A stretch of DNA of 34,515 bases from the IMG/VR virus record IMGVR_UViG_2667527976_000007, one strand, 5' to 3'. Made by a program: the position numbers and the translations under genes. Shown here in pieces: positions 1,064 through 13,057 of the stretch; positions within the stretch are counted from its first letter, which is position 1; every line of letters begins with the position of its first letter. The notes under the pieces were generated by a model. It was not told the DNA's origin. It searched no databases and saw only the letters and a program-made list of their open reading frames with translations. This DNA is from a virus. Taxonomy: Duplodnaviria > Heunggongvirae > Uroviricota > Caudoviricetes.

Positions 1064-1484
1064 GTTTGACTCCCGCAGCTCTGCGCTGCCACTTCTTCAG
1101 TTTCTCAATAACACTGCTTGCCTGTTCAGTACTGAGCCAGCGCAGGGCGCTGATGCCCGTTTCCCGCTTGATCCACCTCGCTAATGCATTTTCTGAACGG
1201 TCACGAACAATGCCGGCAGCAGCCATTTCAAGCCATAGCGCACGAATTTTCCTGGACTGCGGATGGTTATCAAGCGGTAAACCGGAGCTGGCTTTTCTGG
1301 CTGGTTTAACGCGAAAGCCTTTCTTTTTCATGGATTCCAGCACGCAGTTTAGTTGTGTGGTATCCATTCCTTTGGTTGAGGCTTTACCGGTCAGCCCCTG
1401 TAACATCTGGCGGTAGGTGTCTTCATCCATACCCAGTTCATTACGGGCAATATGGATAAGCTGTATCAGGCGTTTTTTCTGCAT
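1035..1484 (-). CDS. GemA-like protein (Mu gp16 family)
   Basis: 149 aa; position immediately upstream of the Mor-like gene; sequence character consistent with Mu GemA/DUF1018 family. Confidence 0.6.
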   Translation of the reverse strand: MQKKRLIQLIHIARNELGMDEDTYRQMLQGLTGKASTKGMDTTQLNCVLESMKKKGFRVKPARKASSGLPLDNHPQSRKIRALWLEMAAAGIVRDRSENALARWIKRETGISALRWLSTEQASSVIEKLKKWQRRAAGVKHERPESVSK

Positions 1485-1485
1485 A

Positions 1486-1692
1486 TCATCTCCTTTTTTT
1501 CAGTCTGTCGGCAACAATGTCGGTTGCAGCTGGCAGGGTGACTGGCCAGAACAACATGACGGCGGTCATGTACAGGATGTAATGCGCGGTGTCGTAGTGC
1601 CTGCCATAGCCCAGGGAACGATGAAGTCTTGCGCTGCATGATCCTGCGTACATATACCAGAAAAGAAAACAGACAATGGTTTCAGTAGTCAT
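1486..1692 (-). CDS. small membrane protein (2 predicted TM helices)
   Basis: Internal ATG at 1692 of ORF 1486..1848 gives a 68-aa protein 'MTTETIVCFLFWYMYAG...' with two hydrophobic helices; start chosen to fit the operon, uncertain. Confidence 0.4.
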   Translation of the reverse strand: MTTETIVCFLFWYMYAGSCSARLHRSLGYGRHYDTAHYILYMTAVMLFWPVTLPAATDIVADRLKKRR

Positions 1693-1912
1693 TCTGAATA
1701 CCTCCCCATTCGATATGAATATTACGGGCAGCAATGACAGGGTCGTTATTCCACCATGCACCTGACATGTATTTTTCAACCTGTTCGCGTCCGGCAATAA
1801 CACCAATTGTGATCCCCGGCCTGACGTTCTTAAAAAAGGCGCGGGCAAAAAGGTATCTGGCAGATATTCGGCAGGCTTTTAATTTCCGGCTTTTACCTGA
1901 TAGCGTAATCAT
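1682..1912 (-). CDS. hypothetical early protein (76 aa)
   Basis: ORF whose start overlaps the stop of the upstream DUF2786-like gene (coupled arrangement); no recognisable domain. Confidence 0.35.
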   Translation of the reverse strand: MITLSGKSRKLKACRISARYLFARAFFKNVRPGITIGVIAGREQVEKYMSGAWWNNDPVIAARNIHIEWGGIQNDY

Positions 1913-2628
1913 CTGGCCTCCAGTTTCTGTTGTTCCTGCCCACTGACCGGGCGGTGCAGTCTGACGTTCTGCCCTTCACGAAACCCCGCATAGCGCGAGG
2001 CGTCGCCATTGCGGCTTCTTCCCGGTTTACGCGCCCTGGTGGTTTGCGTCTGCGGGTATTTATGTTCCAGCCACTGCTGCATCAGTTCACGCTCATCATC
2101 GGTCAGGGCAAAGGACTGTATTTCACTGATAACGGCCAGCACCCAGCCTTCGGCAAACTGGTCTCCACGGCTGGTGCGGGTGGCGGTTTTTATTCTTTTG
2201 TTCTGTGCACTGATATACTGCTGACGCGCCTTTTTCAGCTGACGGGCCAGCACTTCCCAGGTGTATGCAGCCAGTGCCGCACGTTCCCGGTTGCCGTAGA
2301 ACCCCACAGACGGATGCGTGCCGGGGTGAATGATGGAGTTAACACCAAATACCTCGCGGATGATGTTCATCAGGCCCAGCATGTAGCGCGGTGGACGGAG
2401 ACTGCCTGTCGGCCAGTAGTGACTGATGGTTTCATCAATATCACTCATAGCAATGTCGGAATGTGTGATGCCGTGAACATCCATCAGTTTACGGGCTCGG
2501 CGCAGTGCCAGAGCGGCCTCGTGCGGGTTGCCGGATGCGGCCAGCGCCAGCAACTTTTTCAGTTTCTCAATGTGTTTATTCTGGTCTGTCATTGTTCTGT
2601 ATCTCCGGTATTTTTCTGCCGTTTCCAT
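1909..2628 (-). CDS. DUF2786-like phage early protein
   Basis: 239 aa; N-terminal 'KLLALAASGNPHEAALALRRARKLM' block is characteristic of the DUF2786 family common in phage early regions. Confidence 0.55.
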   Translation of the reverse strand: METAEKYRRYRTMTDQNKHIEKLKKLLALAASGNPHEAALALRRARKLMDVHGITHSDIAMSDIDETISHYWPTGSLRPPRYMLGLMNIIREVFGVNSIIHPGTHPSVGFYGNRERAALAAYTWEVLARQLKKARQQYISAQNKRIKTATRTSRGDQFAEGWVLAVISEIQSFALTDDERELMQQWLEHKYPQTQTTRARKPGRSRNGDASRYAGFREGQNVRLHRPVSGQEQQKLEAR

Positions 2629-2804
2629 GCCCGGACAGCGTCGGACAGCTCTTTCAGGCTGTATGCTGCTTTAAGCTTTTCCCATAACCACTGTGTTGTT
2701 ATGTGCATCAGCAGGGCAGCCAGGGCTGCCCCCGCACTGAGGCATGTCGCCAGGCCAGTAAGAATCAGTGTCCATGCGGTGATTTCCCTGAGTATGTCAG
2801 CCAT
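2589..2804 (-). CDS. small hydrophobic protein (71 aa)
   Basis: ORF with one strongly hydrophobic central segment; sits in the early operon in the same orientation. Confidence 0.4.
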   Translation of the reverse strand: MADILREITAWTLILTGLATCLSAGAALAALLMHITTQWLWEKLKAAYSLKELSDAVRAWKRQKNTGDTEQ

Positions 2805-2818
2805 TGAATGCCTCCCGG

Positions 2819-3115
2819 TTACTCGTTCGTGTAAATCACGCCCAGTCGTGCAGCCAGACGTTCCAGTTTTTTCTGTTTGTGGAAGTCAATCAGCCGGTCC
2901 ATCCCCTGAAGGCGCAGTTGCTCTGTCATGATTTCCACGTCTGCCAGCTCTGCCGCGAGGTCACTTTCGCTGCCCTGTCCGTTCAGGTTGCGGGCGGCAC
3001 TGGCCGCCAGTTCAGCGGCCTCTTCTGCCAGTTTCAGGGCCTGTGCGTCCGGCCCGAAACGCTGCAGGGCCAGACGGTAGAGGGCGGTGCGGGTGAGTTC
3101 GGTGTTTCGTGTCAT
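2819..3115 (-). CDS. hypothetical early protein (98 aa)
   Basis: ORF in operon orientation with tight spacing to neighbours; alpha-helical, Ala/Leu-rich; no recognisable domain. Confidence 0.45.
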   Translation of the reverse strand: MTRNTELTRTALYRLALQRFGPDAQALKLAEEAAELAASAARNLNGQGSESDLAAELADVEIMTEQLRLQGMDRLIDFHKQKKLERLAARLGVIYTNE

Positions 3116-3124
3116 GCCGCGCCC

Positions 3125-3397
3125 TCAGTGCTTCCGGCTGACGGTGATGTGCAGGCCGCCTTCTGCAGTGGTTTCCATCCGGTACGGCACCTCATGCTCT
3201 GCCGTGTGGGTGAGTGTGTTCATCAGTACCTGCAGGGCAGCCTCCTTTCCGTTGGTCGCCACAATGGCCTGTGTGGCCATGCTGATTAGCGCCGTCAGGA
3301 CGTGCTTCACATCGGTGAGGTCGCGGCATTCACACTCGTTGACATAGTGTTCAACAAGAGTTCGGGTGCGCTGTCGTGCTTCCTGTGGGGTAATCAT
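3125..3397 (-). CDS. hypothetical early protein (90 aa)
   Basis: ORF in operon orientation; its start overlaps the stop of the upstream zinc-ribbon ORF. Confidence 0.45.
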   Translation of the reverse strand: MITPQEARQRTRTLVEHYVNECECRDLTDVKHVLTALISMATQAIVATNGKEAALQVLMNTLTHTAEHEVPYRMETTAEGGLHITVSRKH

Positions 3398-3588
3398 TGC
3401 GCGTCCTCCCTGTCAGGGCGGGAGAATTCCATGACGGGCACGTCCGCCGAAAAATGCTGGCTGCAGTACGGGCAGACCAGGGTGACACGTACTGCAGGTA
3501 TGTGATACTTACCGGACATCACGGCGATGGCGCTGTGAAAACGCAGGGCTGTTATATCCCTCTCGCACTGAATACATTTAAATATCAT
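3394..3588 (-). CDS. small zinc-ribbon protein (two CxxC pairs)
   Basis: 64 aa with 'CIQC' and 'CPYC' motifs; RBS-like GAGGAG upstream on the minus strand. Confidence 0.5.
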   Translation of the reverse strand: MIFKCIQCERDITALRFHSAIAVMSGKYHIPAVRVTLVCPYCSQHFSADVPVMEFSRPDREDAQ

Positions 3589-3685
3589 AATTTAATTCTC
3601 CTCTGTTTCCGGCGTGCAGAAGCCCGCGGCGCTGACGCCGGAATAAAAAAGAAAATGTTTTTATTAAATAATTAACGTGGTGTGT

Positions 3686-4216
3686 TTACTGCACATCCTG
3701 CTCAAAAGGAATTATTGAAAAATCCTCAATATCACTTTTTATGGTAATACCGGGAATATTTTTCACAGCCTCTTTTTCATTCAGAATGGCATCTTTATTT
3801 ATTTCCTCCTTTACACGAATAAAGCGCTCAAGCCCCAGACGTCTCAGCAGTTCAATGACATTATCCGCCCCGCGAATGCTGACTGACGGCGGACGGTTTC
3901 GCCACTGCACCTCGCCGGTGGTGAGGTTAGCGAACTTCACCTTCCCGTTGCCGGTCAGTTCATCACGGTGCGCCTCACACCATGTCTGGATACCGGACTG
4001 CAGTTCGGCCATGCGTTTTTTCAGGCTCTCGGTGAGCGGGGCATAACGTGCAGTGATGTCGCCAATGGTGTCATTCATTTCTGTTTCAGCCCTGACCAGT
4101 TCACGTTGCGCGTCACCAAGCAGTCTGATTCCCTCAATGACCTCTTCGCGTGTCCCCGGCACCCAGAGTGCTGCTGCGGCTTTGATACGTTTTGCCCCTT
4201 TTGTACTTTTTGCCAT
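3686..4216 (-). CDS. gam: Gam-like host-nuclease inhibitor (Mu Gam family)
   Basis: 176 aa; 'MAK...KRIKAAAA...EMND.I..IT...AP....L...W...HRDELT..GKVKFANLTTGEVQWR.RPPSVSIRG.D.V.E.L.RLGL.RFIR.K.EINK.AIL.E......GI..KS.IEDFSIIPFEQ' closely parallels Mu Gam as I recall it; AGGAGG RBS upstream. Confidence 0.85.
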   Translation of the reverse strand: MAKSTKGAKRIKAAAALWVPGTREEVIEGIRLLGDAQRELVRAETEMNDTIGDITARYAPLTESLKKRMAELQSGIQTWCEAHRDELTGNGKVKFANLTTGEVQWRNRPPSVSIRGADNVIELLRRLGLERFIRVKEEINKDAILNEKEAVKNIPGITIKSDIEDFSIIPFEQDVQ

Positions 4217-4243
4217 ATTTTATGACTCCTCCTGTTGTGCTGA

Positions 4244-4513
4244 TTACCACAAAGATTCCGGCCACACGACGCGACAGCCGTGCAGTTCGAAAACGCCCTG
4301 ACGGAAATGTCCCCTGTGGTCATGACCGGTATACAGATAACAGGCCTTTCCCTGCTCAAGCATGCGCATGCAATGCGCACTCCGGGAAACGCGGATGACA
4401 GGTTTGTTACCCCTGATGGTGATGCTTTGTACATCCGTGTTCGTCGCCTTAAGCGCCATAATGGCTGACTGCACTTTGCTGATTTGCTGGTTGATACCTG
4501 TGGTGGATTTCAT
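4244..4513 (-). CDS. hypothetical early protein (Kil position, 89 aa)
   Basis: ORF immediately downstream of the MuB-like gene, where Mu carries kil; no sequence-level assignment possible. Confidence 0.4.
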   Translation of the reverse strand: MKSTTGINQQISKVQSAIMALKATNTDVQSITIRGNKPVIRVSRSAHCMRMLEQGKACYLYTGHDHRGHFRQGVFELHGCRVVWPESLW

Positions 4514-4515
4514 TA

Positions 4516-5682
4516 TTAAACCCCTTTGACAACGTCAGCGTTGACCTGTGGAACCCCGATTTCAGCGGCCAGATTCATGGCGGCTATTACCAGGTTACTG
4601 ACGGCCAGCGGATACAGCAGGCTGACCATATTTTTACGATGACTTCCCGGATTGCTCAGGCGGGCACGTATGGCATCCACTGCGCTGGCGTCCATAATGT
4701 CCGTCAGTTGTTTACCGGCCCGTTGCAGTTTGAACGTCAGAAACTCTTCAAGGTTATTGTCCAGAGGCAGAAGTTCGACCACCTCACAGCGCTGAACGAC
4801 TTCACGGACTTCCATATTGCGTTCAGACAGTTTTGTCGCCAGTTCCGGCTGGCCAATCAGCACGATGGACAGCAGTTTTTTGAAACCGGACTCCAGCTCA
4901 AAAAAGCGTTTGAGGTGTTTCAGTGTCGGAATGGGCAGACTGTGGGCCTCCTCAATCACCAGAACGTGGCTGAACCCCGCCTGGCTGCTGTCTTTCAGGA
5001 CGCGATGCAACTGGCGAAAGCGGGCGTCCTGACTGCGTCTGATGCTTTCCAGTGGTGCGATGGTACTGATAATGGCTTCGGCAATCGCTGCTGCCTTCAG
5101 GGTTTTCCCTTTCACATCGTTGTCTTCCATAGCGATGATGTATGGCTCGATAACAATTACCGGCGCATTCTCGCGGTTGATACGTTCAGTCAGGTCGCGG
5201 CGCAGCGTGGATTTACCCGCACCGGACTCACCGATGACGGCCATAAACCCACCATGACGGGCTGTCTGGTACAACGCCTCACGCACGTAGCGAATATCCG
5301 GGGTGGTGAACACATCATCAGAACCCTGCATGGCTTCGTCGGCGAACGGGTCACGGAAAAGACCAAACGCTTTTTTGGTTGCTGGAAATAACACCTGTTT
5401 TTTGAGTAACATATTCTCTTCCTCACTGAGGCTCGTTTTATCTGTGGTACCCGCTGTACGGGGCGTGGCCGCGCCCTGTACAGCATCAAAACTCTTCGTT
5501 GTATCAATCCCCTGACTTTCCAGCCAGGACGCAAGACGCCGGCGCACTTCTCCGGGGCTGGTGCGGGGCCACGCGTTATGATTCACAATCTGGGCCAGCG
5601 TGGCCTCAGAAACATCGACAGCTCTCGCCACCACCGCCTGTGGAATACGGGCCTCTTTCAGTTGCTGCTTCAGTACCAGCAT
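4516..5682 (-). CDS. MuB-like transposition ATPase (AAA+)
   Basis: Walker A 'GESGAGKST'; N-terminal HTH-like region; directly downstream of the transposase. Start set to the ATG at 5682, which follows GGAGGG 5 nt after the transposase TGA, rather than the upstream in-frame ATG at 5721. Confidence 0.8.
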   Translation of the reverse strand: MLVLKQQLKEARIPQAVVARAVDVSEATLAQIVNHNAWPRTSPGEVRRRLASWLESQGIDTTKSFDAVQGAATPRTAGTTDKTSLSEEENMLLKKQVLFPATKKAFGLFRDPFADEAMQGSDDVFTTPDIRYVREALYQTARHGGFMAVIGESGAGKSTLRRDLTERINRENAPVIVIEPYIIAMEDNDVKGKTLKAAAIAEAIISTIAPLESIRRSQDARFRQLHRVLKDSSQAGFSHVLVIEEAHSLPIPTLKHLKRFFELESGFKKLLSIVLIGQPELATKLSERNMEVREVVQRCEVVELLPLDNNLEEFLTFKLQRAGKQLTDIMDASAVDAIRARLSNPGSHRKNMVSLLYPLAVSNLVIAAMNLAAEIGVPQVNADVVKGV

Positions 5683-5692
5683 GTTTCCCTCC

Positions 5693-7462
5693 TCAGTTGC
5701 CGTTAACAATGCTGATAACACTGCTGCGGGCCGGTGTGGTCAGCGTGGCCATGACTTCATCCAGTGCGGCTTCCGGTACGCCGTCCGGGTACTGTGCCGT
5801 TAACTGGCGGTAATGTTCCGGCGTCCAGGTAAGGCCGTCGGCGCTGAACTTATCGCGCAGGGCTTTCGCGGCCTCCACATGAGTCATGGGACGTTGTTCA
5901 GTGCGCGGCCCGCGTACGTCAGAGGCCTGACCACGCTTCGGCATATAGGCCGGAAGTGTGGTGTCGTCGATATGTTTATACGGGTCAAGCCGCCCGCCGA
6001 ACGGCAGCGCCTTCGCCTTGCGTGCGGCGGCTGCATCTGCGGCGTTGTCTGTACCGGTAACCAGCGCTTCGGTTTCTTTTGCCGCCATCTGTGCCGGGGT
6101 TTCCGGCAGGGCTTTGTAACTTTCGCCAAATACCGCCGCGCCTTCAGCAAAGCCAAACTCGTTCTTTCTGACCTCTTCGACCAGGAAGAACGTCTCGTGG
6201 CCGTCCTCACCGGTCAGAACCACCTGTGCCACATCGCTGCGCCATGGGTTACGGGTAATCATCAGTTTTTCACCAACCAGTACGCCCGGTACCGTTGATA
6301 CGTCAAATTCAGTGCCCCGGAACGAGACACGAAGTTTTGGCGTGACTTTGCGGAGTTCTGGTGCCGCCACAGCCAGTTCACGACATACCTCAACGGAAGG
6401 CGCTTTTTTCAGCTGCTCAGCAGTAATCTTCAGCCAGATATCCGTGCGGGTTTTACCGTGGCGGCTGTGAACAGCCGTGGCGTTAAAGTGGCTGCGCCAT
6501 TTCGCGGCCAGCGCGTTGAGTTCTTCCAGACTGTGAACCGGCCGGAACTTCAGACCCGGCTCCAGCTTGCGTTCGATAATGTCACGCGCCTTTTCCACCT
6601 GTCCGGTGGCGCGGGCGTTATGCGGCTTGTGCGCTATCAGGTCAATGCCCAGTGAGCGGCACATGTTTTTCGTCATACCCGCGGTGTTTGCCGAACCGGG
6701 GTCGAGATAGAGTATTTTTGGCACGCCGTGCAGCACGTCTGCGCCGCCACGCTCCTGCATGGCGTTGATAAGCACAGAACACAGGTTCTCACCGGATTCC
6801 GCACCCGTCACATACTCAACGTAAATCCAGCCGCTGGCATGGTCGGTAATCTCGTAACTCCACACGCGGTCACTGGCGATACGGGCAAGGTTAGCGGGTT
6901 TGTTCTTGTAGAACTTCGCGCTGTCCATCACCTGCAGCCCTTTGTGTCCATTGCTCAGGTAGTAAAGCGTGCAGAGCGAGGCATCAATCTGCCAGACATG
7001 ATTGGGATGCAGACTGGCCACTTCGGTATGCGGCGCAGGAGCATCCAGTTGTTCCGGGTGCAGGCCATAGTTACGCAGGGCACGACTGATGGCATCTTCG
7101 GACAACGGGAAAAACTCACCGGTGGTTTCATCTGTTCTGCCTGCGGAGATAAAGCCGTTAGCCCGCAGGGTTTCCACTGCATCCGCGATGGAATAGAGAC
7201 GCTTACCGTTCTTGCGGGTGGCCTCACGCAGTGTGGCAGATATCAGCGCGGCTTCGTCGCGGGTCAGGGCGCTGCGTCCGGCATCAGCGCGTTTTTTGCG
7301 TTTATCAGTCACAGAGACCTCCTTCAGCCTGCGCAGCAGAGTGGCGCGGGACATGCCAAGTTCAGCACAGGCAGCGTCGTATATTGCACCGCGTTTACCA
7401 TGCCCCGCGTCACGTGCCGCGCGGGCGACATAAACCAGTCGTTCAGTCAGGGCAGCATTCAT
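5693..7462 (-). CDS. MuA-like DDE transposase
   Basis: 589 aa; N-terminal DNA-binding region then an rve/DDE-type core; gene order ner-(x)-A-B as in Mu. Confidence 0.8.
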   Translation of the reverse strand: MNAALTERLVYVARAARDAGHGKRGAIYDAACAELGMSRATLLRRLKEVSVTDKRKKRADAGRSALTRDEAALISATLREATRKNGKRLYSIADAVETLRANGFISAGRTDETTGEFFPLSEDAISRALRNYGLHPEQLDAPAPHTEVASLHPNHVWQIDASLCTLYYLSNGHKGLQVMDSAKFYKNKPANLARIASDRVWSYEITDHASGWIYVEYVTGAESGENLCSVLINAMQERGGADVLHGVPKILYLDPGSANTAGMTKNMCRSLGIDLIAHKPHNARATGQVEKARDIIERKLEPGLKFRPVHSLEELNALAAKWRSHFNATAVHSRHGKTRTDIWLKITAEQLKKAPSVEVCRELAVAAPELRKVTPKLRVSFRGTEFDVSTVPGVLVGEKLMITRNPWRSDVAQVVLTGEDGHETFFLVEEVRKNEFGFAEGAAVFGESYKALPETPAQMAAKETEALVTGTDNAADAAAARKAKALPFGGRLDPYKHIDDTTLPAYMPKRGQASDVRGPRTEQRPMTHVEAAKALRDKFSADGLTWTPEHYRQLTAQYPDGVPEAALDEVMATLTTPARSSVISIVNGN

Positions 7463-7465
7463 TGG

Positions 7466-8377
7466 TTATGCCTCCAGCCCGTTAATCTGTGGCGTCGGCT
7501 CAGTCAGCCATGAAGGCGCGGCATTGCCTGTTGGCTCATCCGGCAGGTCAAATGTGGAGCGCAGGCTACGCGCTGTGCTTTCCAGTTGACAGACCAGGCC
7601 TGCCATGAAGTCTCTGGGGGTATCAATCATGTTTTCAGCACAATATGCGCACAGCGTCTCAAAAGCGCTGGACAGTCGAACGGCGATAGCAGATTCCGCC
7701 TCAACCGCTAATGCTGTCACTTCCGCCCGCAGCTTCTTAACCTCTTCATCAGGCTCAGGCGGCTGAATACGGGATTTCTTCTCCAGTCTGGTGGAGAGTG
7801 AGTCTATTTTTTCATTTTTGTCAGCGAGTACGCGCTGTTGTGCTGCGTTGGTTTCGCGCGCTTCGCGCAGGGCCTGACGCAATTCACGTACTGACATGCG
7901 ATCAACGTCGTCAAGCGTCAGGCCGGCAACTGTGCCGCCGTCGGCCAGTTCGGCAAGCTCTTCGTCGTCTTCTGTCATTAATTCGAAAAGTTTGGCTTTT
8001 CCCAAATGTGCCAACGTTGGCACATTTGGTTTCAGCGCCGGGGATAAGTATTTTGTCGATGCTTGCATCATTCTCACAGATGTCCGGTATGCCAGCCCCA
8101 ACTCACTTTCAAGAATCTTTATAAACTCCCCGTGTGGTTCATTTTCCTTAAGGATTATCAGCCGCTTACCTGCCTCCAGCATGGCCTCAGCGCTCTGTGC
8201 CATATAAAAGCGTGCCTCATGGACAACACGATCGCGCTCATAGGGCAGACCATCGCCGAACTGTTGCATGATTTCCATGCGATGCTGTGTCATGGCGTTT
8301 AGACTGACATTGAGATCATCCGACAGCGGTACCTCGACGTTCAGTTCAGTGCTAACCGGTGATTTGGTGCGTCCCAT
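7466..8377 (-). CDS. DUF3102-like early protein
   Basis: 303 aa; between the regulators and the transposase, a position where Mu-like prophages often carry a DUF3102 protein; assigned by family resemblance only. Confidence 0.45.
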   Translation of the reverse strand: MGRTKSPVSTELNVEVPLSDDLNVSLNAMTQHRMEIMQQFGDGLPYERDRVVHEARFYMAQSAEAMLEAGKRLIILKENEPHGEFIKILESELGLAYRTSVRMMQASTKYLSPALKPNVPTLAHLGKAKLFELMTEDDEELAELADGGTVAGLTLDDVDRMSVRELRQALREARETNAAQQRVLADKNEKIDSLSTRLEKKSRIQPPEPDEEVKKLRAEVTALAVEAESAIAVRLSSAFETLCAYCAENMIDTPRDFMAGLVCQLESTARSLRSTFDLPDEPTGNAAPSWLTEPTPQINGLEA

Positions 8378-9005: not shown

Positions 9006-9413
9006 ATGAGTACAAAAGAGAGATTGCGTGAAGTGATGGATGCTAATGGCATGACAATAAAGGCATTATCTAACTTATCAAAAATTCCATATCGCTCACT
9101 TCAAAACTATTTGCGTGGAGAGAGAGAACCAAACGCAGAGGCTCTTGTTGCGCTAAGCACCCATTTGGGTGTATCGATCGATTGGCTACTTACCGGTAAA
9201 GAACATATTCCATCTAAAGAAATTGTTGCTGTACCAACACAACATCAATTCAGCCCGTCAGACCTTAAAATGCTTGAACTTCTAAACCAGTTAGATCCTG
9301 AGGTTCGGCGAGATCTCATGCGAGGCGCTGAAGAAAAACAGCGTGTGATTGAGATGGAAAAACAACTGAAGGAATTATCCGCAACGATTGAGCGGTTAAA
9401 AAATGTGGGTTAA
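9006..9413 (+). CDS. XRE-family HTH regulator (candidate prophage repressor or regulator of the adjacent cargo operon)
   Basis: Internal ATG at 9006 of ORF 8910..9413; HTH_XRE-like N-terminus '...MTIKALSNLSKIPYRSLQNYLRGEREPNAEALVALSTHLGVSIDWLL' and a C-terminal coiled-coil-like tail; AT-rich like the downstream operon. Confidence 0.65.
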   Translation: MSTKERLREVMDANGMTIKALSNLSKIPYRSLQNYLRGEREPNAEALVALSTHLGVSIDWLLTGKEHIPSKEIVAVPTQHQFSPSDLKMLELLNQLDPEVRRDLMRGAEEKQRVIEMEKQLKELSATIERLKNVG

Positions 9414-9483: not shown

Positions 9484-10491
9484 ATGTCTGAGCAGACCAT
9501 TGAAGTTAAACACGTTGTAGTTCACATTTTAGACAAACAACAAAATGGAGACGCTTCTGAGAGATTGAGTCCTGAAGAAGGTCTAGTTACTGAAGCCTCC
9601 CAGCGCCTTATAAACGATATTTGTGCAAAATATGCAGGACGCACAGGTAAAGGTTATGGCTATTTTGAAGGCGATACGGATAACTATCCTATGGAACGAA
9701 TGGCTGGGGACTTTCTCGAAGGTGTTGATGATTTCTACCAAAGTTCCTGCCGAATGATGCATCACCTGACGGAACGTTCTCAGCGAGAAAACATGGCTAC
9801 TGGTGGTTATGTTCTTTTTGCAAATATCGTGATAGGACACAATGAACACCTGTTGATAGCTATTGTAAGCGCTACCATTGGATCCACTGTCACAGATGAT
9901 TTTAACATCCAAGATAGTACCTATCTTGATATTGCTAAGCTGCGTATGGCTGGGCGCATTGACTTAACCGCGTGGGAAAGTGGCGCAGAGCGCTATATCA
10001 GTTTTCTTAAGGGGCAAGGTAATGTTTCAAACTATTTTAAACAGTTCCTCGGCTGTAATGATGTCTTAATCGCCAAACGAGAGTCTGAAAAGTTACGTGA
10101 CGTTTTAAAAGCATTTGCGGCAGAGAAAGGACTTGACGGCGCTGAAAAAGATGCATTTCTTAAGAGTGCGTTTGAACACTTACATGCACTAAGTAAGGCT
10201 GGTGAACCACTTAGTCTTGAAACCCTTGTTAATGCCATTTGGCCCCAGGCTCCCGAGGAGTTATCTGGTAAACTTGCTGCTGAAGAGTTGGAGTTATCGG
10301 ATGGCTTCGTTCCTGATGGTCGAGTCATTCGGGCTCTGGTATCTTTTAAAGGCAAGTCTAAATATTGGGAACTTAAGTTTGACCGGGAAGGGAAAACTGA
10401 AGGCTATATTGATTATGATCCGGAAACAAATATTATCACCCTACGTAATGTACCTGAAGAATTTAGGGAAATGTGGATGACTGAGGTTTAA
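9484..10491 (+). CDS. YejK/NdpA-like nucleoid-associated protein (NA37 family) homologue
   Basis: 335 aa, the same length as E. coli YejK; blocks 'YLDIAKLRMAGRIDLTAWESGAERYISFLKG' and C-terminal 'YDPETNIITLRNVPEEF' parallel YejK blocks as I recall them; AAGGTGG RBS upstream; markedly AT-rich. Confidence 0.6.
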   Translation: MSEQTIEVKHVVVHILDKQQNGDASERLSPEEGLVTEASQRLINDICAKYAGRTGKGYGYFEGDTDNYPMERMAGDFLEGVDDFYQSSCRMMHHLTERSQRENMATGGYVLFANIVIGHNEHLLIAIVSATIGSTVTDDFNIQDSTYLDIAKLRMAGRIDLTAWESGAERYISFLKGQGNVSNYFKQFLGCNDVLIAKRESEKLRDVLKAFAAEKGLDGAEKDAFLKSAFEHLHALSKAGEPLSLETLVNAIWPQAPEELSGKLAAEELELSDGFVPDGRVIRALVSFKGKSKYWELKFDREGKTEGYIDYDPETNIITLRNVPEEFREMWMTEV

Positions 10492-10493
10492 TC

Positions 10494-11699
10494 GTGGCGA
10501 TTTCATTTGAGATGCTGACAGATCTGTATCGTCGTATGGAATTCCAAGAGGGGTTTCGTGTCGGTTCGCTGTTGCTCTTAGATCAGTCCGATTGTGATCT
10601 GGTTGATACTTTGCTTGATGATCCTCGTGAATATGGTCTTTCTATTGATACAGGCACTATCGCTCCAGGTAACACGATCATCCTACGTGTGACGTCACCA
10701 CGGAGTGGACTGGGACTTGTGTTTTCCACCCATGAAAAATTGCTAAATGCTCCAAAGCATCAGTGCCTTGAGCCAGCTAATTACTTCATCCTAGAAACAA
10801 AGTTTCGTAATGATGATGAAGATATCCCCGTTTTCATCAGCAACTACCGGAAGATTCTCGAGTTCGTTAACCTGCTAAAAGAGGCCGCGGCCTACTTTGA
10901 TAACTCAACTTGTCAGTTAGTTTTTCTGAAAAAAGAAGTTATCAAGCTATTACCGCACTTCGCTGCAGAAAATGTACAAAATTTGCAAAGAGAGTATCTT
11001 GATAACCTTATAGCTTGTTTCAATGATGATACCCATAAGGATCAGAAGCTAGATATTCTGATTGAAAGTATCCAAGCAGTTAGTGATGGAATTGATTCAC
11101 CTCTAGTATTCGCTTATTTACTGGACAATATTCAGCGTCTGCATGAAAAGTTTCTGAAAGGGTATCGTATCTACTCTTCTGGATTCTCTTATGACAAAGT
11201 AATGGATCAACTGCGTGCTGCAAAAGTCGAAGAAATGGGTAAAATCCACAAAGCGTTTTCAGATATCCAGAACCATATACTTGGCATTCCTGTTGCCTCT
11301 GTTATCGTAGCTACCCAATTCAAAGTGGCTACGAAATGGTCAGGCCAAGGGATAACAAACACAATAATTCTTCTGGGATGCATTTTTGCTGCAACGTTAA
11401 TCTGGCTGGCACTTTCGAACCAGATGCAATCTATAAAGGCCTTAGGCGAAGAAATTGAATACAAAGAAAAACAGATTAATAAGGAATATTCCTTCATTAA
11501 AGATGACGTGGCTGGTGTATTTAGCAGTATTTCTGCGCGACTAGACACGCAGAAACGTACGTTCTGGATTATACGTGGTGTTCTAGTTATGGGAATTATT
11601 ACCGCTATCACTGTTTATTTTTGGTACACAAAACCAGCCCTTGACTTCATGCAGTACTTGATTCACTGCATGAAGTCTTACTATTCGGTCAAAAGTTGA
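10494..11699 (+). CDS. uncharacterised protein with soluble N-terminal domain and two C-terminal TM helices
   Basis: GTG start 2 nt after the upstream TAA (translational coupling); predicted TM helices at about residues 287-307 and 357-377; no recognisable catalytic motif; AT-rich. Confidence 0.55.
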   Translation: MAISFEMLTDLYRRMEFQEGFRVGSLLLLDQSDCDLVDTLLDDPREYGLSIDTGTIAPGNTIILRVTSPRSGLGLVFSTHEKLLNAPKHQCLEPANYFILETKFRNDDEDIPVFISNYRKILEFVNLLKEAAAYFDNSTCQLVFLKKEVIKLLPHFAAENVQNLQREYLDNLIACFNDDTHKDQKLDILIESIQAVSDGIDSPLVFAYLLDNIQRLHEKFLKGYRIYSSGFSYDKVMDQLRAAKVEEMGKIHKAFSDIQNHILGIPVASVIVATQFKVATKWSGQGITNTIILLGCIFAATLIWLALSNQMQSIKALGEEIEYKEKQINKEYSFIKDDVAGVFSSISARLDTQKRTFWIIRGVLVMGIITAITVYFWYTKPALDFMQYLIHCMKSYYSVKS

Positions 11700-12459
11700 G
11701 GATAATGAGTTCCTTCTTGCGACTGGATTTGCCAGTGATCTTGAGGTTGTAGCTGATATCAACCGACTGAATATTTAGACCGTTGAATGCCTGCCGCATT
11801 TCCGGGATATCGTTCACCGATATAATCATCTTCCCTTTGATCCTGCGTGCTAAATCTGCCATATGATCATAATTTTCTAGTCCGAACTCCACACCATAAC
11901 CTTCCGTTCCCCAGTATGGAGGGTCACAGTAGAACAACGTATGCGGGCGATCATATCGTTCTATGCACTGTTGCCAGTCCATGTGTTCTATGACCGTTCT
12001 GGAAAGCCGCAGGTGTGCCGCTGACAGTTCTTCTTCAATACGCAGCAGGTTGAAGCGTGGCGGGGATATGGTGGAGGTACCAAAGCTGTGCTCCGCCACC
12101 TTGCCTCCAAACGCCTGCTTCTGAAGGTAGTAGAACCGTGCTGCACGCTGGATATCCGTCAGTGTTTCTTCCGGGGTGATCTGCAGCCATTTGTAGATCT
12201 GCCGGCTGACCAGCGCCCATTTGAACTGGCGTACAAATTCTTCCAGATGATGTTTTACCACCCGATACAGGTTCACCAGTTCACCGTTGATATCATTAAT
12301 GACTTCGATCTTGCCGGGTACCTTAAGAAAATAGAGCGCTGCTGCCCCACAAAACGGCTCCACATAACATTCATGCGCCGGAAACAGCGGCAGGATGTGT
12401 TTTGCAAGGCGGCGTTTGCCACCAATCCATGGAACGATGGGTAATGTCTGCATTTTCAT
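11689..12459 (-). CDS. DNA N6-adenine methyltransferase (Dam/D12-class family)
   Basis: 256 aa; N-terminal 'VEPFCGAAALYF' (SAM-binding motif I) and catalytic 'DPPY' motif; convergent with the cargo operon, overlapping its end by 11 nt. Confidence 0.8.
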   Translation of the reverse strand: MKMQTLPIVPWIGGKRRLAKHILPLFPAHECYVEPFCGAAALYFLKVPGKIEVINDINGELVNLYRVVKHHLEEFVRQFKWALVSRQIYKWLQITPEETLTDIQRAARFYYLQKQAFGGKVAEHSFGTSTISPPRFNLLRIEEELSAAHLRLSRTVIEHMDWQQCIERYDRPHTLFYCDPPYWGTEGYGVEFGLENYDHMADLARRIKGKMIISVNDIPEMRQAFNGLNIQSVDISYNLKITGKSSRKKELIILNF

Positions 12460-12564
12460 AATCTGTAAGCCTTTTACAATTATAAAAAATATGGCAGGCT
12501 AGTCTGGTCTCGCGAGACTGACTGAACCTCGGTCGGCTCACAGCGCATTCCTGTGGGGCGATGG

Positions 12565-12602
12565 CCAGCCCGGTGTTCGGGTACCGGGCTGGTCGTTCTT
12601 TC
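12565..12602 (+). terminator. putative intrinsic terminator/insulator hairpin
   Basis: 9-bp stem CCAGCCCGG / CCGGGCTGG (12565-12573 and 12584-12592) with a 10-nt loop, followed by T-rich TCGTTCTTTC. Confidence 0.35.
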
Positions 12603-12706
12603 AAAGTCATCATGCAGTGCACGTTTACATCTTCACTATTAACGCTGTTTAAAATCCGTATCCCGCCACATTTGTGATGCTGTCTCCACCAAACGAGGAG
12701 ACACAC

Positions 12707-13057
12707 ATGAAAAACCTGAAAAAATTCATTCCCCCTGTTAAAAAACCTCGCCTCAGCGGCTGGCTGCTGACCTCAGTGCTGTTGCTGGGCATCATCGCTC
12801 TGGTCTCGCCACAGCAGTTGCCTGTTGTGATCTACAAGCTGGCACTTATCACGCTGGCAGCAGTGCTGGGTTACTGGCTTGACCGTTCGCTCTTCCCCAA
12901 AGCCCGTCCCGGTCAGTACCTGAAACATGACGACAGGCTGATGGCTGAAGGGCGTTTCCCGGTACAGACCGGCCTTCACCTGGTGTTTTCTGCTGCGTTA
13001 ATCCGCCGTGCACTGATTGTTGCAGCGGTCTGCCTGGCTGTGGCAACAGGACTGTGA
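12707..13057 (+). CDS. putative holin-like membrane protein
   Basis: ATG at 12707 preceded by AGGAGA; 117 aa with 2-3 hydrophobic helices; immediately upstream of the endolysin, with TGA/ATG coupling. Confidence 0.5.
   Translation: MKNLKKFIPPVKKPRLSGWLLTSVLLLGIIALVSPQQLPVVIYKLALITLAAVLGYWLDRSLFPKARPGQYLKHDDRLMAEGRFPVQTGLHLVFSAALIRRALIVAAVCLAVATGL

Follow-up and report, generated by a model that had tools for sequence, protein, structure and literature searches.

Bacteriophage Mu carries com–mom, a module for phage DNA modification against restriction that is harmful to the host and tightly gated (PMC3299994). In Mu-like phages an adenine methyltransferase can follow com in place of mom (Drozdz et al. 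2012, PMC3299994), as do Hia5, Hin1523 and Nme1821, Dam-related α-class enzymes of Mu-like prophages with FxGxG and DPPY motifs and a divergent target-recognition region; relaxed specificity was shown for the Hia5 group. Two described relatives of the gene studied here are Pseudomonas phage B3 ORF48 ('Dam modification methylase'), listed by Drozdz et al. (PMC3299994) as untested for activity, and M.EcoMIV, a D12-class enzyme of the sequence type 131 (ST131) Escherichia coli strain EC958 whose recognition site was not known in 2015 and which could not be linked to any methylation pattern (Forde et al. 2015, PMC4659465). Here we analyse a 34,515-nucleotide (nt) stretch of viral DNA (IMG/VR record IMGVR_UViG_2667527976_000007; the window) and in it an orphan methylase gene with a structured RNA motif encoded directly upstream. 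We find the RNA motif to be strictly linked to methylase, com–methylase and com–mom genes, and, with a probability of roughly 0.55, we read the gene as an active phage-borne α-class methylase that forms a Mom-like self-protection unit with the RNA as its likely gate. The methylase and the parts of the RNA motif lie in the window as follows:

11689–12459, minus strand: methylase open reading frame (ORF), 256 amino acids (aa), start MKMQTLPIVPWIGGK; α-class, D12/Dam-like
12482–12615, plus strand: conserved structured RNA motif, about 100–130 nt and terminator-ended, directly upstream of the methylase and divergent from it
about 12501–12523, plus strand: H1, hairpin/palindrome (from alignment and RNAalifold)
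12524–12527 with 12595–12598, plus strand: H2, outer helix of GAAC with GUUC, enclosing H3 and H4
within H2, plus strand: H3, CUCACAG...CUGUGGG with G:U extensions
about 12563–12594, plus strand: H4, GC-rich stem (from alignment and RNAalifold)
12599–12606, plus strand: U/C-rich tail following the last helix

Comparative analysis supports this structure and assigns it to one strand. The common fold of 21 enterobacterial prophages scores −29.8 kcal/mol on the plus strand and −20.6 kcal/mol on the minus strand in RNAalifold. In this alignment 96.6% of cells pair and compensatory changes occur in 14 of 31 pairs, values reached by none of 500 shuffles, and slid helix partners pair at 32–52%. Among 50 diverse copies 94.7% of cells pair, compensatory changes occur in 29 of 31 pairs and slid partners pair at no more than 54%, although this broader alignment was fitted to the covariance model described below and so leans toward the modelled structure and flatters the numbers, which has to be counted against our reading. 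Helices H2, H3 and H4 together show compensatory changes in 24 of 26 pairs in the broad alignment, H1 pairs less well (85%), and G:U cells outnumber A:C cells by 243 to 39. In 47 of 49 loci the more stable fold belongs to the strand that lies opposite the methylase. Because both the G:U excess and the folding energies favour that strand, the structure is that of an RNA whose transcription proceeds away from the methylase. Beyond the last helix, the next 10 nt contain 5.2 U on average where composition predicts about 2.7, and an unpaired GCCUUGG is conserved within the motif.

From sequence comparison the element at 12482–12615 appears to be a previously uncatalogued motif. Rfam 15 has no match to the whole window at gathering scores, to positions 11500–12800 at E ≤ 1 or to eight relatives at gathering scores, and no RefSeq feature is annotated under the motif in 556 E. 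coli genomes. The Rfam family ctRNA_pGA1 (RF00236; gathering score 45) is matched below threshold by GC-rich Burkholderia copies only (phiE125, 38.4 bits, E = 2e-6; locus L033, 29.5 bits). This family is a plasmid counter-transcribed antisense RNA, encoded opposite the leader of the gene that it controls, as our motif may be; both have two hairpins and a U-tail, and the phiE125 copy matches it over its full length. By contrast, the motif described here has the extra helices H1 and H2, and the window copy does not match the family at E ≤ 1; we accordingly assign the motif to no Rfam family. The hypothetical ORFs B3 ORF45/46 (L093:1079–1304) and VP882 gp36 (L094:1084–1416) span the RNA motif and are probably not genes.

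The physical linkage of the RNA to DNA-modification genes is strict. We built a covariance model from the 21-prophage alignment, on which the window copy scores 132 bits, and found the motif in about 46 of 61 further methylase-family loci from β- and γ-proteobacteria, as well as in phages phiE125 (39 bits), KS9, B3 (36 bits), VP882, MuM16-1 and AM106. All significant full-length matches to the model in 676 kb of sequence lie within about 340 nt upstream of a methylase gene and on the opposite strand, and none lies anywhere else. The motif is absent from BcepMu, which has no methylase, and from Mu. Copies in relatives include:

locus L011, 4769–4895, minus strand: RNA motif
locus L093 (phage B3), 1198–1332, minus strand: RNA motif
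locus L094 (phage VP882), 1342–1475, minus strand: RNA motif
locus L125, 1148–1282, plus strand: RNA motif

An independent search of IMG/VR with the 18-nt RNA core GCCTTGGYTGRCTCACAG, made with no protein information, returned 31 loci, 30 of them with the full motif, and every one of these 30 has an adjoining divergent partner gene. The partner belongs to the present methylase family in 29 cases, three of which have a Com zinc-ribbon gene in between, and is com–mom in the remaining one, a viral contig in which RNA motif, com and mom follow one another (Mom, PF25680, 3.6e-73; Com, PF10122, 2e-21). A Com zinc-ribbon gene (PF10122) directly precedes the family methylase in B3 and in at least 7 genomic or viral loci; the loci with Com upstream of a family member are, besides B3, L048, L054, L068, L084, L089, L098, L117, L126 and L127. 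Because its partners are the methylase, com–methylase and com–mom, the RNA is tied to Mom-type phage DNA-modification genes and not to one enzyme, and these partnerships extend across Mu-like, BcepMu-like, lambda-like and telomere phages of γ- and β-proteobacteria. We tentatively suggest, at somewhat less than even odds, that the RNA at 12482–12615 represents an undescribed small-RNA family that serves as a portable gate for phage anti-restriction modification genes, with divergent, interdigitated promoters, and decides when a phage marks its DNA.

The methylase ORF itself is real and intact, in agreement with a sequence-only reading of the window that had described a DPPY-motif methyltransferase at this position. 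Motif X is WIGGK (residues 11–15), the S-adenosylmethionine (AdoMet) motif I is EPFCGAAALYF (residues 34–44; core FCGAA, residues 36–40, nt 12340–12354) and is thus of the form FxGxA, not FxGxG, DIN occupies residues 56–58, and motif IV, DPPY, occupies residues 179–182 (nt 11914–11925) in the context FYCDPPYWG. Motifs X and I are N-terminal and are followed by the target-recognition region and then by motif IV, the order of the D12/α group, and the catalytic and AdoMet motifs show no variation when E. coli Dam and three relatives from phages (27–92% identity) are aligned to the protein. Profile matches are far above chance: Pfam PF02086 (D12 N6-adenine methyltransferase) covers residues 11–234 and profile positions 1–248 of 253 (E = 7e-28; 98.4 bits against a cutoff of 22), the REBASE-derived type II methylase model of PADLOC (MTase_II PDLC03253) gives E = 4e-115, phrog_56 gives 4e-100, and NCBIfam TIGR00571 ('dam') is passed marginally (116.9 bits against a cutoff of 114.85). 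RefSeq labels the same ORF 'DNA adenine methylase' (WP_000783856.1). PF02086 is its only Pfam match and the Mom enzyme family PF25680 is not matched; the likeness of this methylase to Mom is functional and regulatory, not one of homology. The enzyme is an orphan, with no cognate restriction endonuclease in its neighbourhood or mobile element: the sequence-only reading had seen none adjacent, none lies among the neighbouring genes of the window, and no restriction or nuclease gene is annotated in the whole of a near-identical RefSeq prophage. The 214-nt gap at 12460–12673 of the window contains no com ORF.

The chemistry and target of the enzyme call for more caution. Its best matches among solved structures are DpnM, M.CbeI and E. 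coli Dam (E = 5e-17 to 2e-14, about 25% identity, near full length). M.CbeI (PDB 7m6b) is an α-class DPPY enzyme that makes N4-methylcytosine (PMC8616854), and its match to the window methylase (E = 6e-15) is as good as that of Dam. The DPPY motif alone is therefore no proof of adenine methylation, and neither GATC specificity nor N6-adenine chemistry follows from it. By analogy with phiE125 gp27, N6-methyladenine is the likely product: phiE125 DNA is reported (Woods et al. 2002) to contain N6-methyladenine conferred by the gp27 gene. On sequence comparison the window methylase is not an E. coli Dam orthologue, and it fails the E. coli Dam equivalog NF008152 (69.2 bits against a cutoff of 441). 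The GATC base contacts of E. coli Dam are reportedly (Horton et al. 2006) K9, R124, L122, N120 and P134; the corresponding positions here are P10, A123, K121, G119 and S133 (P134 one position away). The framing residues are kept (Y119 as F118, R137 as R136 and Y138 as F137), and the DNA-reading hairpin is equal in length. The replaced contacts weaken the case for GATC without excluding it, given a Dam alignment at only 27% identity. The label 'Dam-family N6-adenine' proposed in the sequence-only reading therefore stands as far as the D12 class and, marginally, TIGR00571 are concerned, and goes too far in view of the NF008152 score, the replacement of K9 and R124 and the equally good match of an N4-methylcytosine enzyme.

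Sequence composition and published methylomes bear on the same question. GATC occurs in the window at 0.58 of expectation, and a 6.1-kb stretch free of GATC (window 1812–7899) spans the leftward early operon (Gam, B-like ATPase, transposase and DUF3102) and is kept in EC958 Phi2 of ST131 (L007:30431–36580). This depletion suggests that GATC matters to the phage. No GATC cluster of the OxyR/Dam-switch type is present upstream of the window methylase. In a Salmonella strain with a BcepMu-like prophage only the usual host methylation motifs were seen (PMC3868858), and the missing extra motif in this and the EC958 lysogen methylome fits either silence in the lysogen or a GATC specificity hidden by host Dam. 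Published work on Campylobacter CJE0220, Shewanella MuM16-1 and Pseudomonas ANT_H14 gives no specificity for the B3 ORF48/M.EcoMIV family. As a rough estimate, GATC or a GATC-containing site is the target with a chance just short of even, another specific site is somewhat unlikely, and relaxed specificity is slightly more unlikely again.

Candidate promoters for both transcripts fall in the short space between the methylase start and the RNA:

12484–12479, minus strand: candidate −10 element of the methylase promoter, TATAAT (consensus match)
12473–12469, minus strand: candidate methylase Shine–Dalgarno sequence, AAAGG (sequence match)
12475–12480 or 12495–12500, plus strand: candidate −10 element of the RNA promoter, TACAAT or CAGGCT, respectively (consensus match)

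These candidate divergent promoters appear interdigitated within 40 nt (12463–12500), and the methylase −35 position coincides with the middle of the H1 palindrome. On the RNA strand of relatives a TTGCAA-like −35 element, a spacer of 16–18 nt and TAGGCT or TAGAAT occur in about 15 of 51 loci. The methylase leader AAAGGCTTRCAG resembles the 5′ arm of H3, but, read on the opposite strand, this conserved leader may instead represent the RNA promoter's −35 element. Overlapping divergent promoters, momP1 and momP2, are also a feature of Mu mom.

From this arrangement, and for the timing of expression, the anti-restriction role and the action of the RNA alike, we infer a mobile unit of three parts: the RNA with its interdigitated divergent promoters, the methylase (preceded by Com in some relatives) and a 3′ hairpin. 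The methylase would be essentially silent in the lysogen and induced in lytic growth, and progeny DNA would be methylated before packaging and escape restriction in the next host, as Mom does for Mu. The most likely gate of the methylase would be its RNA partner. The two promoters could not both be occupied by RNA polymerase at once, such that occupancy of the RNA promoter would occlude that of the methylase until a late activator bound the H1 palindrome and lifted the occlusion, as at momP1/momP2; alternatively, the RNA itself may repress the methylase. A restriction-evasion role is plausible, and is strengthened by the Com-led relatives and by the RNA that precedes com–mom. An enzyme that is off in the lysogen also fits the low transcription of M.EcoMIV in ST131, which was significantly below that of dam in log phase by reverse-transcription PCR (PMC4659465).

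Several observations weigh against this reading. The candidate promoters are weak consensus matches. A crude test of pairing between the RNA and the methylase or com initiation region gave no signal (cognate, −26.4 kcal/mol; non-cognate, −25.6; shuffled, −25.5). The methylase and the late operon occupy opposite strands, no site for a late activator could be recognised upstream of the gene, and the holin-proximal element TTAACGCNNTTTAAAATCC, sought upstream of the methylase as a late-promoter signature, has one copy only in the window. A GATC specificity masked by host Dam would explain the lysogen methylomes equally well, and if the target is GATC, restriction protection in Dam-positive enterobacteria would be marginal. 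Silence in the lysogen is not universal, as the phi1026b homologue has an appreciable RNA-seq signal in the lysogen (PMC2920897).

The methylase belongs to a common prophage family. Its gene is present at ≥80% nucleotide identity in 535 of 5,426 complete E. coli genomes (about 10%), near-identical proteins number in the thousands throughout Enterobacterales, and the family is retained at ≥65% identity across γ- and β-proteobacterial prophages. Members at 55–67% identity include Burkholderia phages phiE125 (gp27) and phi1026b (gp26–27), KS9, Pseudomonas B3 ORF48, Vibrio VP882 gp37, phiHAP-1, Shewanella MuM16-1 p50 and several Acinetobacter phages. In the enterobacterial BcepMu-like prophages that we retrieved (from Mixta, Pantoea, Erwinia, Trabulsiella, Buttiauxella, Photorhabdus, Xenorhabdus, Serratia, Citrobacter, Brenneria and Symbiopectobacterium) the methylase is always found with the repressor/Ner region on one side and the holin, from which it diverges, on the other, and its flanks vary. 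BcepMu has other genes at that position and no methylase. Judged from these sequences, the methylase is an accessory unit that became fixed in the enterobacterial lineage, with a cargo insertion point on either side. In ST131 and Klebsiella phage KP12 the first 145 nt upstream of its start are conserved along with the gene, despite unrelated genes beyond; when cargo intervenes, the 75 nt nearest the holin stay with the holin and the RNA motif stays with the methylase. The gene is also mosaic. Its nt 1–500 are about 96% identical to ST131, nt 500–720 are about 90% identical to KP12 and about 68% to ST131, and the last 50 nt are unlike both, with a breakpoint near the DPPY codons in the 3′ third of the gene. 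This mosaicism explains why most megablast matches end 60 nt before the 3′ end of the gene, and indicates that cargo exchange used breakpoints inside it.

The surroundings of the unit are those of a BcepMu-like (Mu-like transposable) prophage of E. coli, with genes for Mor (a Mor/C-family activator, 674–1063), Gam, an ExeA-type B protein, a DDE transposase and a Ner-like protein on the minus strand and for a c-type helix-turn-helix repressor followed by lysis, head and tail genes on the plus strand. The features on either side of the methylase are:

about 9006–9413, plus strand: c repressor, upstream of the cargo pair
9484–10491, plus strand: cargo gene 1, YejK/NA37-like nucleoid-associated protein (Pfam NA37, 1e-80)
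10494–11699, plus strand: cargo gene 2, 401-aa protein with a C-terminal membrane region (weak KwaA match)
11643–11677, no strand assigned: perfect 13-bp inverted repeat, GACTTCATGCAGT, 9 nt, ACTGCATGAAGTC
12639–12657, plus strand: holin-proximal element TTAACGCTGTTTAAAATCC, conserved together with the holin
12707–13057, plus strand: holin gene (PF13272), first of the lysis/late operon
after the methylase, plus strand: lysis cassette, with the holin (PF13272) and an SLT transglycosylase (PF01464)

The sequence-only reading had placed the methylase between a cargo operon and the lysis cassette on the opposite strand, which is borne out: the gene is convergent with the cargo and divergent from the lysis genes. 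The two cargo genes are separated by 2 nt and score below cutoff on NCBIfam antiphage models (DS1_1, 63.7 against 330 bits; DS1_2, 75.9 against 315 bits). Their position downstream of a repressor is comparable to that of rexAB beside cI in lambda. Going by its published description, the type II PANGU system pairs a YejK-like nucleoid-associated sensor with a membrane effector and acts by abortive infection (bioRxiv 10.64898/2026.04.06.716658), and the pair at 9484–11699 looks like such a system. The pair is part of the context of the methylase and lies outside the methylase unit. Among relatives it is present only in some (AREA_C483, Mixta and Brenneria), and the site between repressor and methylase is empty in ST131 and holds an unrelated gene in KP12. 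A second cargo insertion point lies at about 12606–12630, between the RNA motif and TTAACGCTGTTTAAAATCC, and is occupied by three small genes in ST131 and by a single one in KP12. A degenerate TTAACGCTGTTTAAAATCC copy seems to border the insert on the dam side in both relatives.

The 3′ end of the methylase is marked by a hairpin. The inverted repeat at 11643–11677 begins 12 nt past the methylase stop codon and lies within the last 19 codons of the membrane-protein ORF; from its sequence it is probably the 3′-end or terminator hairpin of the methylase unit. A hairpin directly follows the methylase stop in every cargo type, with differing sequence: that of ST131 has the form of a canonical terminator of repressor transcription, and those of Photorhabdus and Xenorhabdus are canonical terminators for the methylase. 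The methylase and membrane-protein ORFs are convergent and overlap by exactly 11 nt (11689–11699), just as the sequence-only reading had stated. The Brenneria version of this membrane-protein gene ends 19 nt sooner, inside the hairpin, and does not overlap the methylase, and the hairpin is retained by compensatory change. Because Brenneria keeps the hairpin without the overlap, the hairpin is the conserved feature and the 11-nt overlap a lineage-specific tail.

These comparisons bear on other explanations of the locus. Antisense coupling of the methylase to the cargo through the convergent overlap was suggested by the sequence-only reading, and a strong form of this idea would make the methylase the modification half of a defence system with the nucleoid-associated and membrane proteins. 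The overlap is real, the position of the hairpin inside the membrane-protein ORF means that the 3′ ends of both transcripts must overlap, and the arrangement recurs in E. coli AREA_C483 and Mixta. However, the methylase occurs without this cargo in ST131, where the repressor has its own terminator, with unrelated cargo in KP12, Erwinia and Photorhabdus, and in unrelated phage types; the Brenneria pair does not overlap it; the recombination breakpoint in the 3′ third of the gene marks the junction as a swap scar; and PANGU-type systems are described as two genes without a methylase (bioRxiv 10.64898/2026.04.06.716658). Coupling by antisense transcription or collision is thus highly improbable, the suggestion of the sequence-only reading finds no support given the variable or missing cargo of relatives, and membership of the methylase in a system with the cargo pair was rejected on the same comparison. 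The upstream motif could instead be no RNA gene and consist of DNA operator palindromes and an ordinary insulating terminator. H1 overlaps the predicted promoters, could bind a dimeric regulator and pairs at only 85% in the broad alignment, the 3′ helix and U/C-rich tail are terminator-like in their U content (5.2 against about 2.7), and in the window phage the motif stands just upstream of the late-operon element. We nevertheless consider this distinctly unlikely. Compensatory changes in 24 of 26 H2–H4 pairs and a sixfold excess of G:U over A:C are meaningful only for an RNA on that strand, the unpaired GCCUUGG and the H3 sequence are conserved beyond the needs of a terminator, and the element in B3, phiE125 and KS9 is oriented contrary to the flanking genes and so cannot be their terminator. 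We also considered and rejected a role as a late-operon insulator against read-through from repressor or cargo, combined with antisense silencing of the methylase; the ST131 repressor has its own terminator, and the orientation of the element, which faces against its neighbour genes in phiE125, KS9 and B3, argues against insulation as a general role.

Two further explanations accept the enzyme and give it another task. The methylase might be a GATC-specific Dam isoenzyme that supplements host Dam methylation while phage DNA replicates rapidly or transposes. This could, for instance, keep MutH from nicking or SeqA from binding that DNA, or set the timing of transposition or packaging, and the enzyme would have no part in restriction evasion. 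Passing the TIGR00571 cutoff, a DNA-reading hairpin of the same length with its flanking aromatic and Arg residues, the lack of a new motif in lysogen methylomes (as expected for GATC), the GATC depletion to 0.58 and the GATC-free 6.1-kb early region kept in ST131 Phi2 all speak for it. So does VP882 gp37, 64% identical to the window methylase, which Lan et al. 2009 reportedly described as a 'functional DNA adenine methylase'. Set against these are the replacement of the base contacts K9, R124, L122 and N120, the equivalog score of 69 against 441, and the success of the family in Burkholderia and Pseudomonas phages, the hosts of which are not known to have a Dam/MutH system; the link to Com and to a mom-associated RNA moreover points to a harmful, tightly gated modification and not to housekeeping. 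On balance we hold the isoenzyme to be unlikely, without dismissing it. A role in lysogenic conversion, in which a prophage-expressed methylase would alter host or prophage gene expression, seems improbable. Orphan methylases are able to do so, expression of the phi1026b homologue was detected in a lysogen, and the gene sits in a moron-rich region between repressor and lysis genes and is missing from BcepMu, yet there is hardly any transcription of the ST131 orthologue, methylomes show no additional motif, and the placement of the unit within the late tail operon (B3) or after the lysis genes (phiE125 and KS9), Com-gated in relatives, fits lytic expression.

Comparison with the described enzymes places the proposed Mom-like self-protection unit among them. 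M.EcoMIV (WP_000783854.1, EC958_1101; Mu-like prophage Phi2 of EC958) is the ST131 orthologue, 88% identical overall, orphan and of D12 class, in the same BcepMu-like prophage type and the same position between repressor and holin. It is about 99% identical over residues 1–182 and only about 65% in the C-terminal third, and ST131 differs further in having no cargo between repressor and methylase and three small genes between RNA motif and holin. B3 ORF48 is 66% identical over 254 aa and has the same RNA motif directly upstream and divergent, but in B3 a Com gene (ORF47) separates RNA and methylase and the unit lies inside the tail-gene operon, whereas the window has no com. The phiE125 gp27 protein is 65% identical over 250 aa and also has the RNA motif upstream, in a lambda-like siphovirus in which the gene comes after the lysis cassette and shares the strand of its neighbours. 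With Mu com–mom the likeness lies in the Com homologues that precede methylase relatives and in the contig with RNA motif, com and mom in the same geometry; Mom itself is unrelated, the adenine modification that it makes is of the carbamoylmethyl type and not a methyl group, and Mu lacks the RNA motif. Proteins of the Hia5 group have 281 aa against 256 aa here, and the absence of B3 ORF48 from the 1,000 sequences closest to Hia5 (PMC3299994) argues against placing the window methylase in that subfamily. E. coli Dam, T4 Dam and DpnM share fold family and motif order at about 25–27% identity, with GATC contacts that are not conserved.

The methylase by itself would be a routine annotation, being common and already listed as M.EcoMIV in REBASE-based work. 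It represents a prophage methylase family of ST131, Klebsiella, Salmonella, Burkholderia pseudomallei phages, Pseudomonas B3-like phages and Vibrio VP882 that lacks the canonical GATC-reading residues. If the RNA indeed times a self-protective modification, it would add a regulatory layer to the classic Mu mom system, give phage genomics a simple sequence marker of anti-restriction modules and account for the invisibility of such methylases in the methylomes of lysogens.

An essentially identical copy of the prophage lies in the hyf operon of E. coli RIVM_C036569. At about 1100–3700 (Gam to Mor) the window differs from the RIVM_C036569 prophage by an indel of about 221 nt and 2–3% divergence, which points to a related but distinct strain as its source. 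Positions 1 to about 650 of the window seem to be host DNA, probably of the hyf region.

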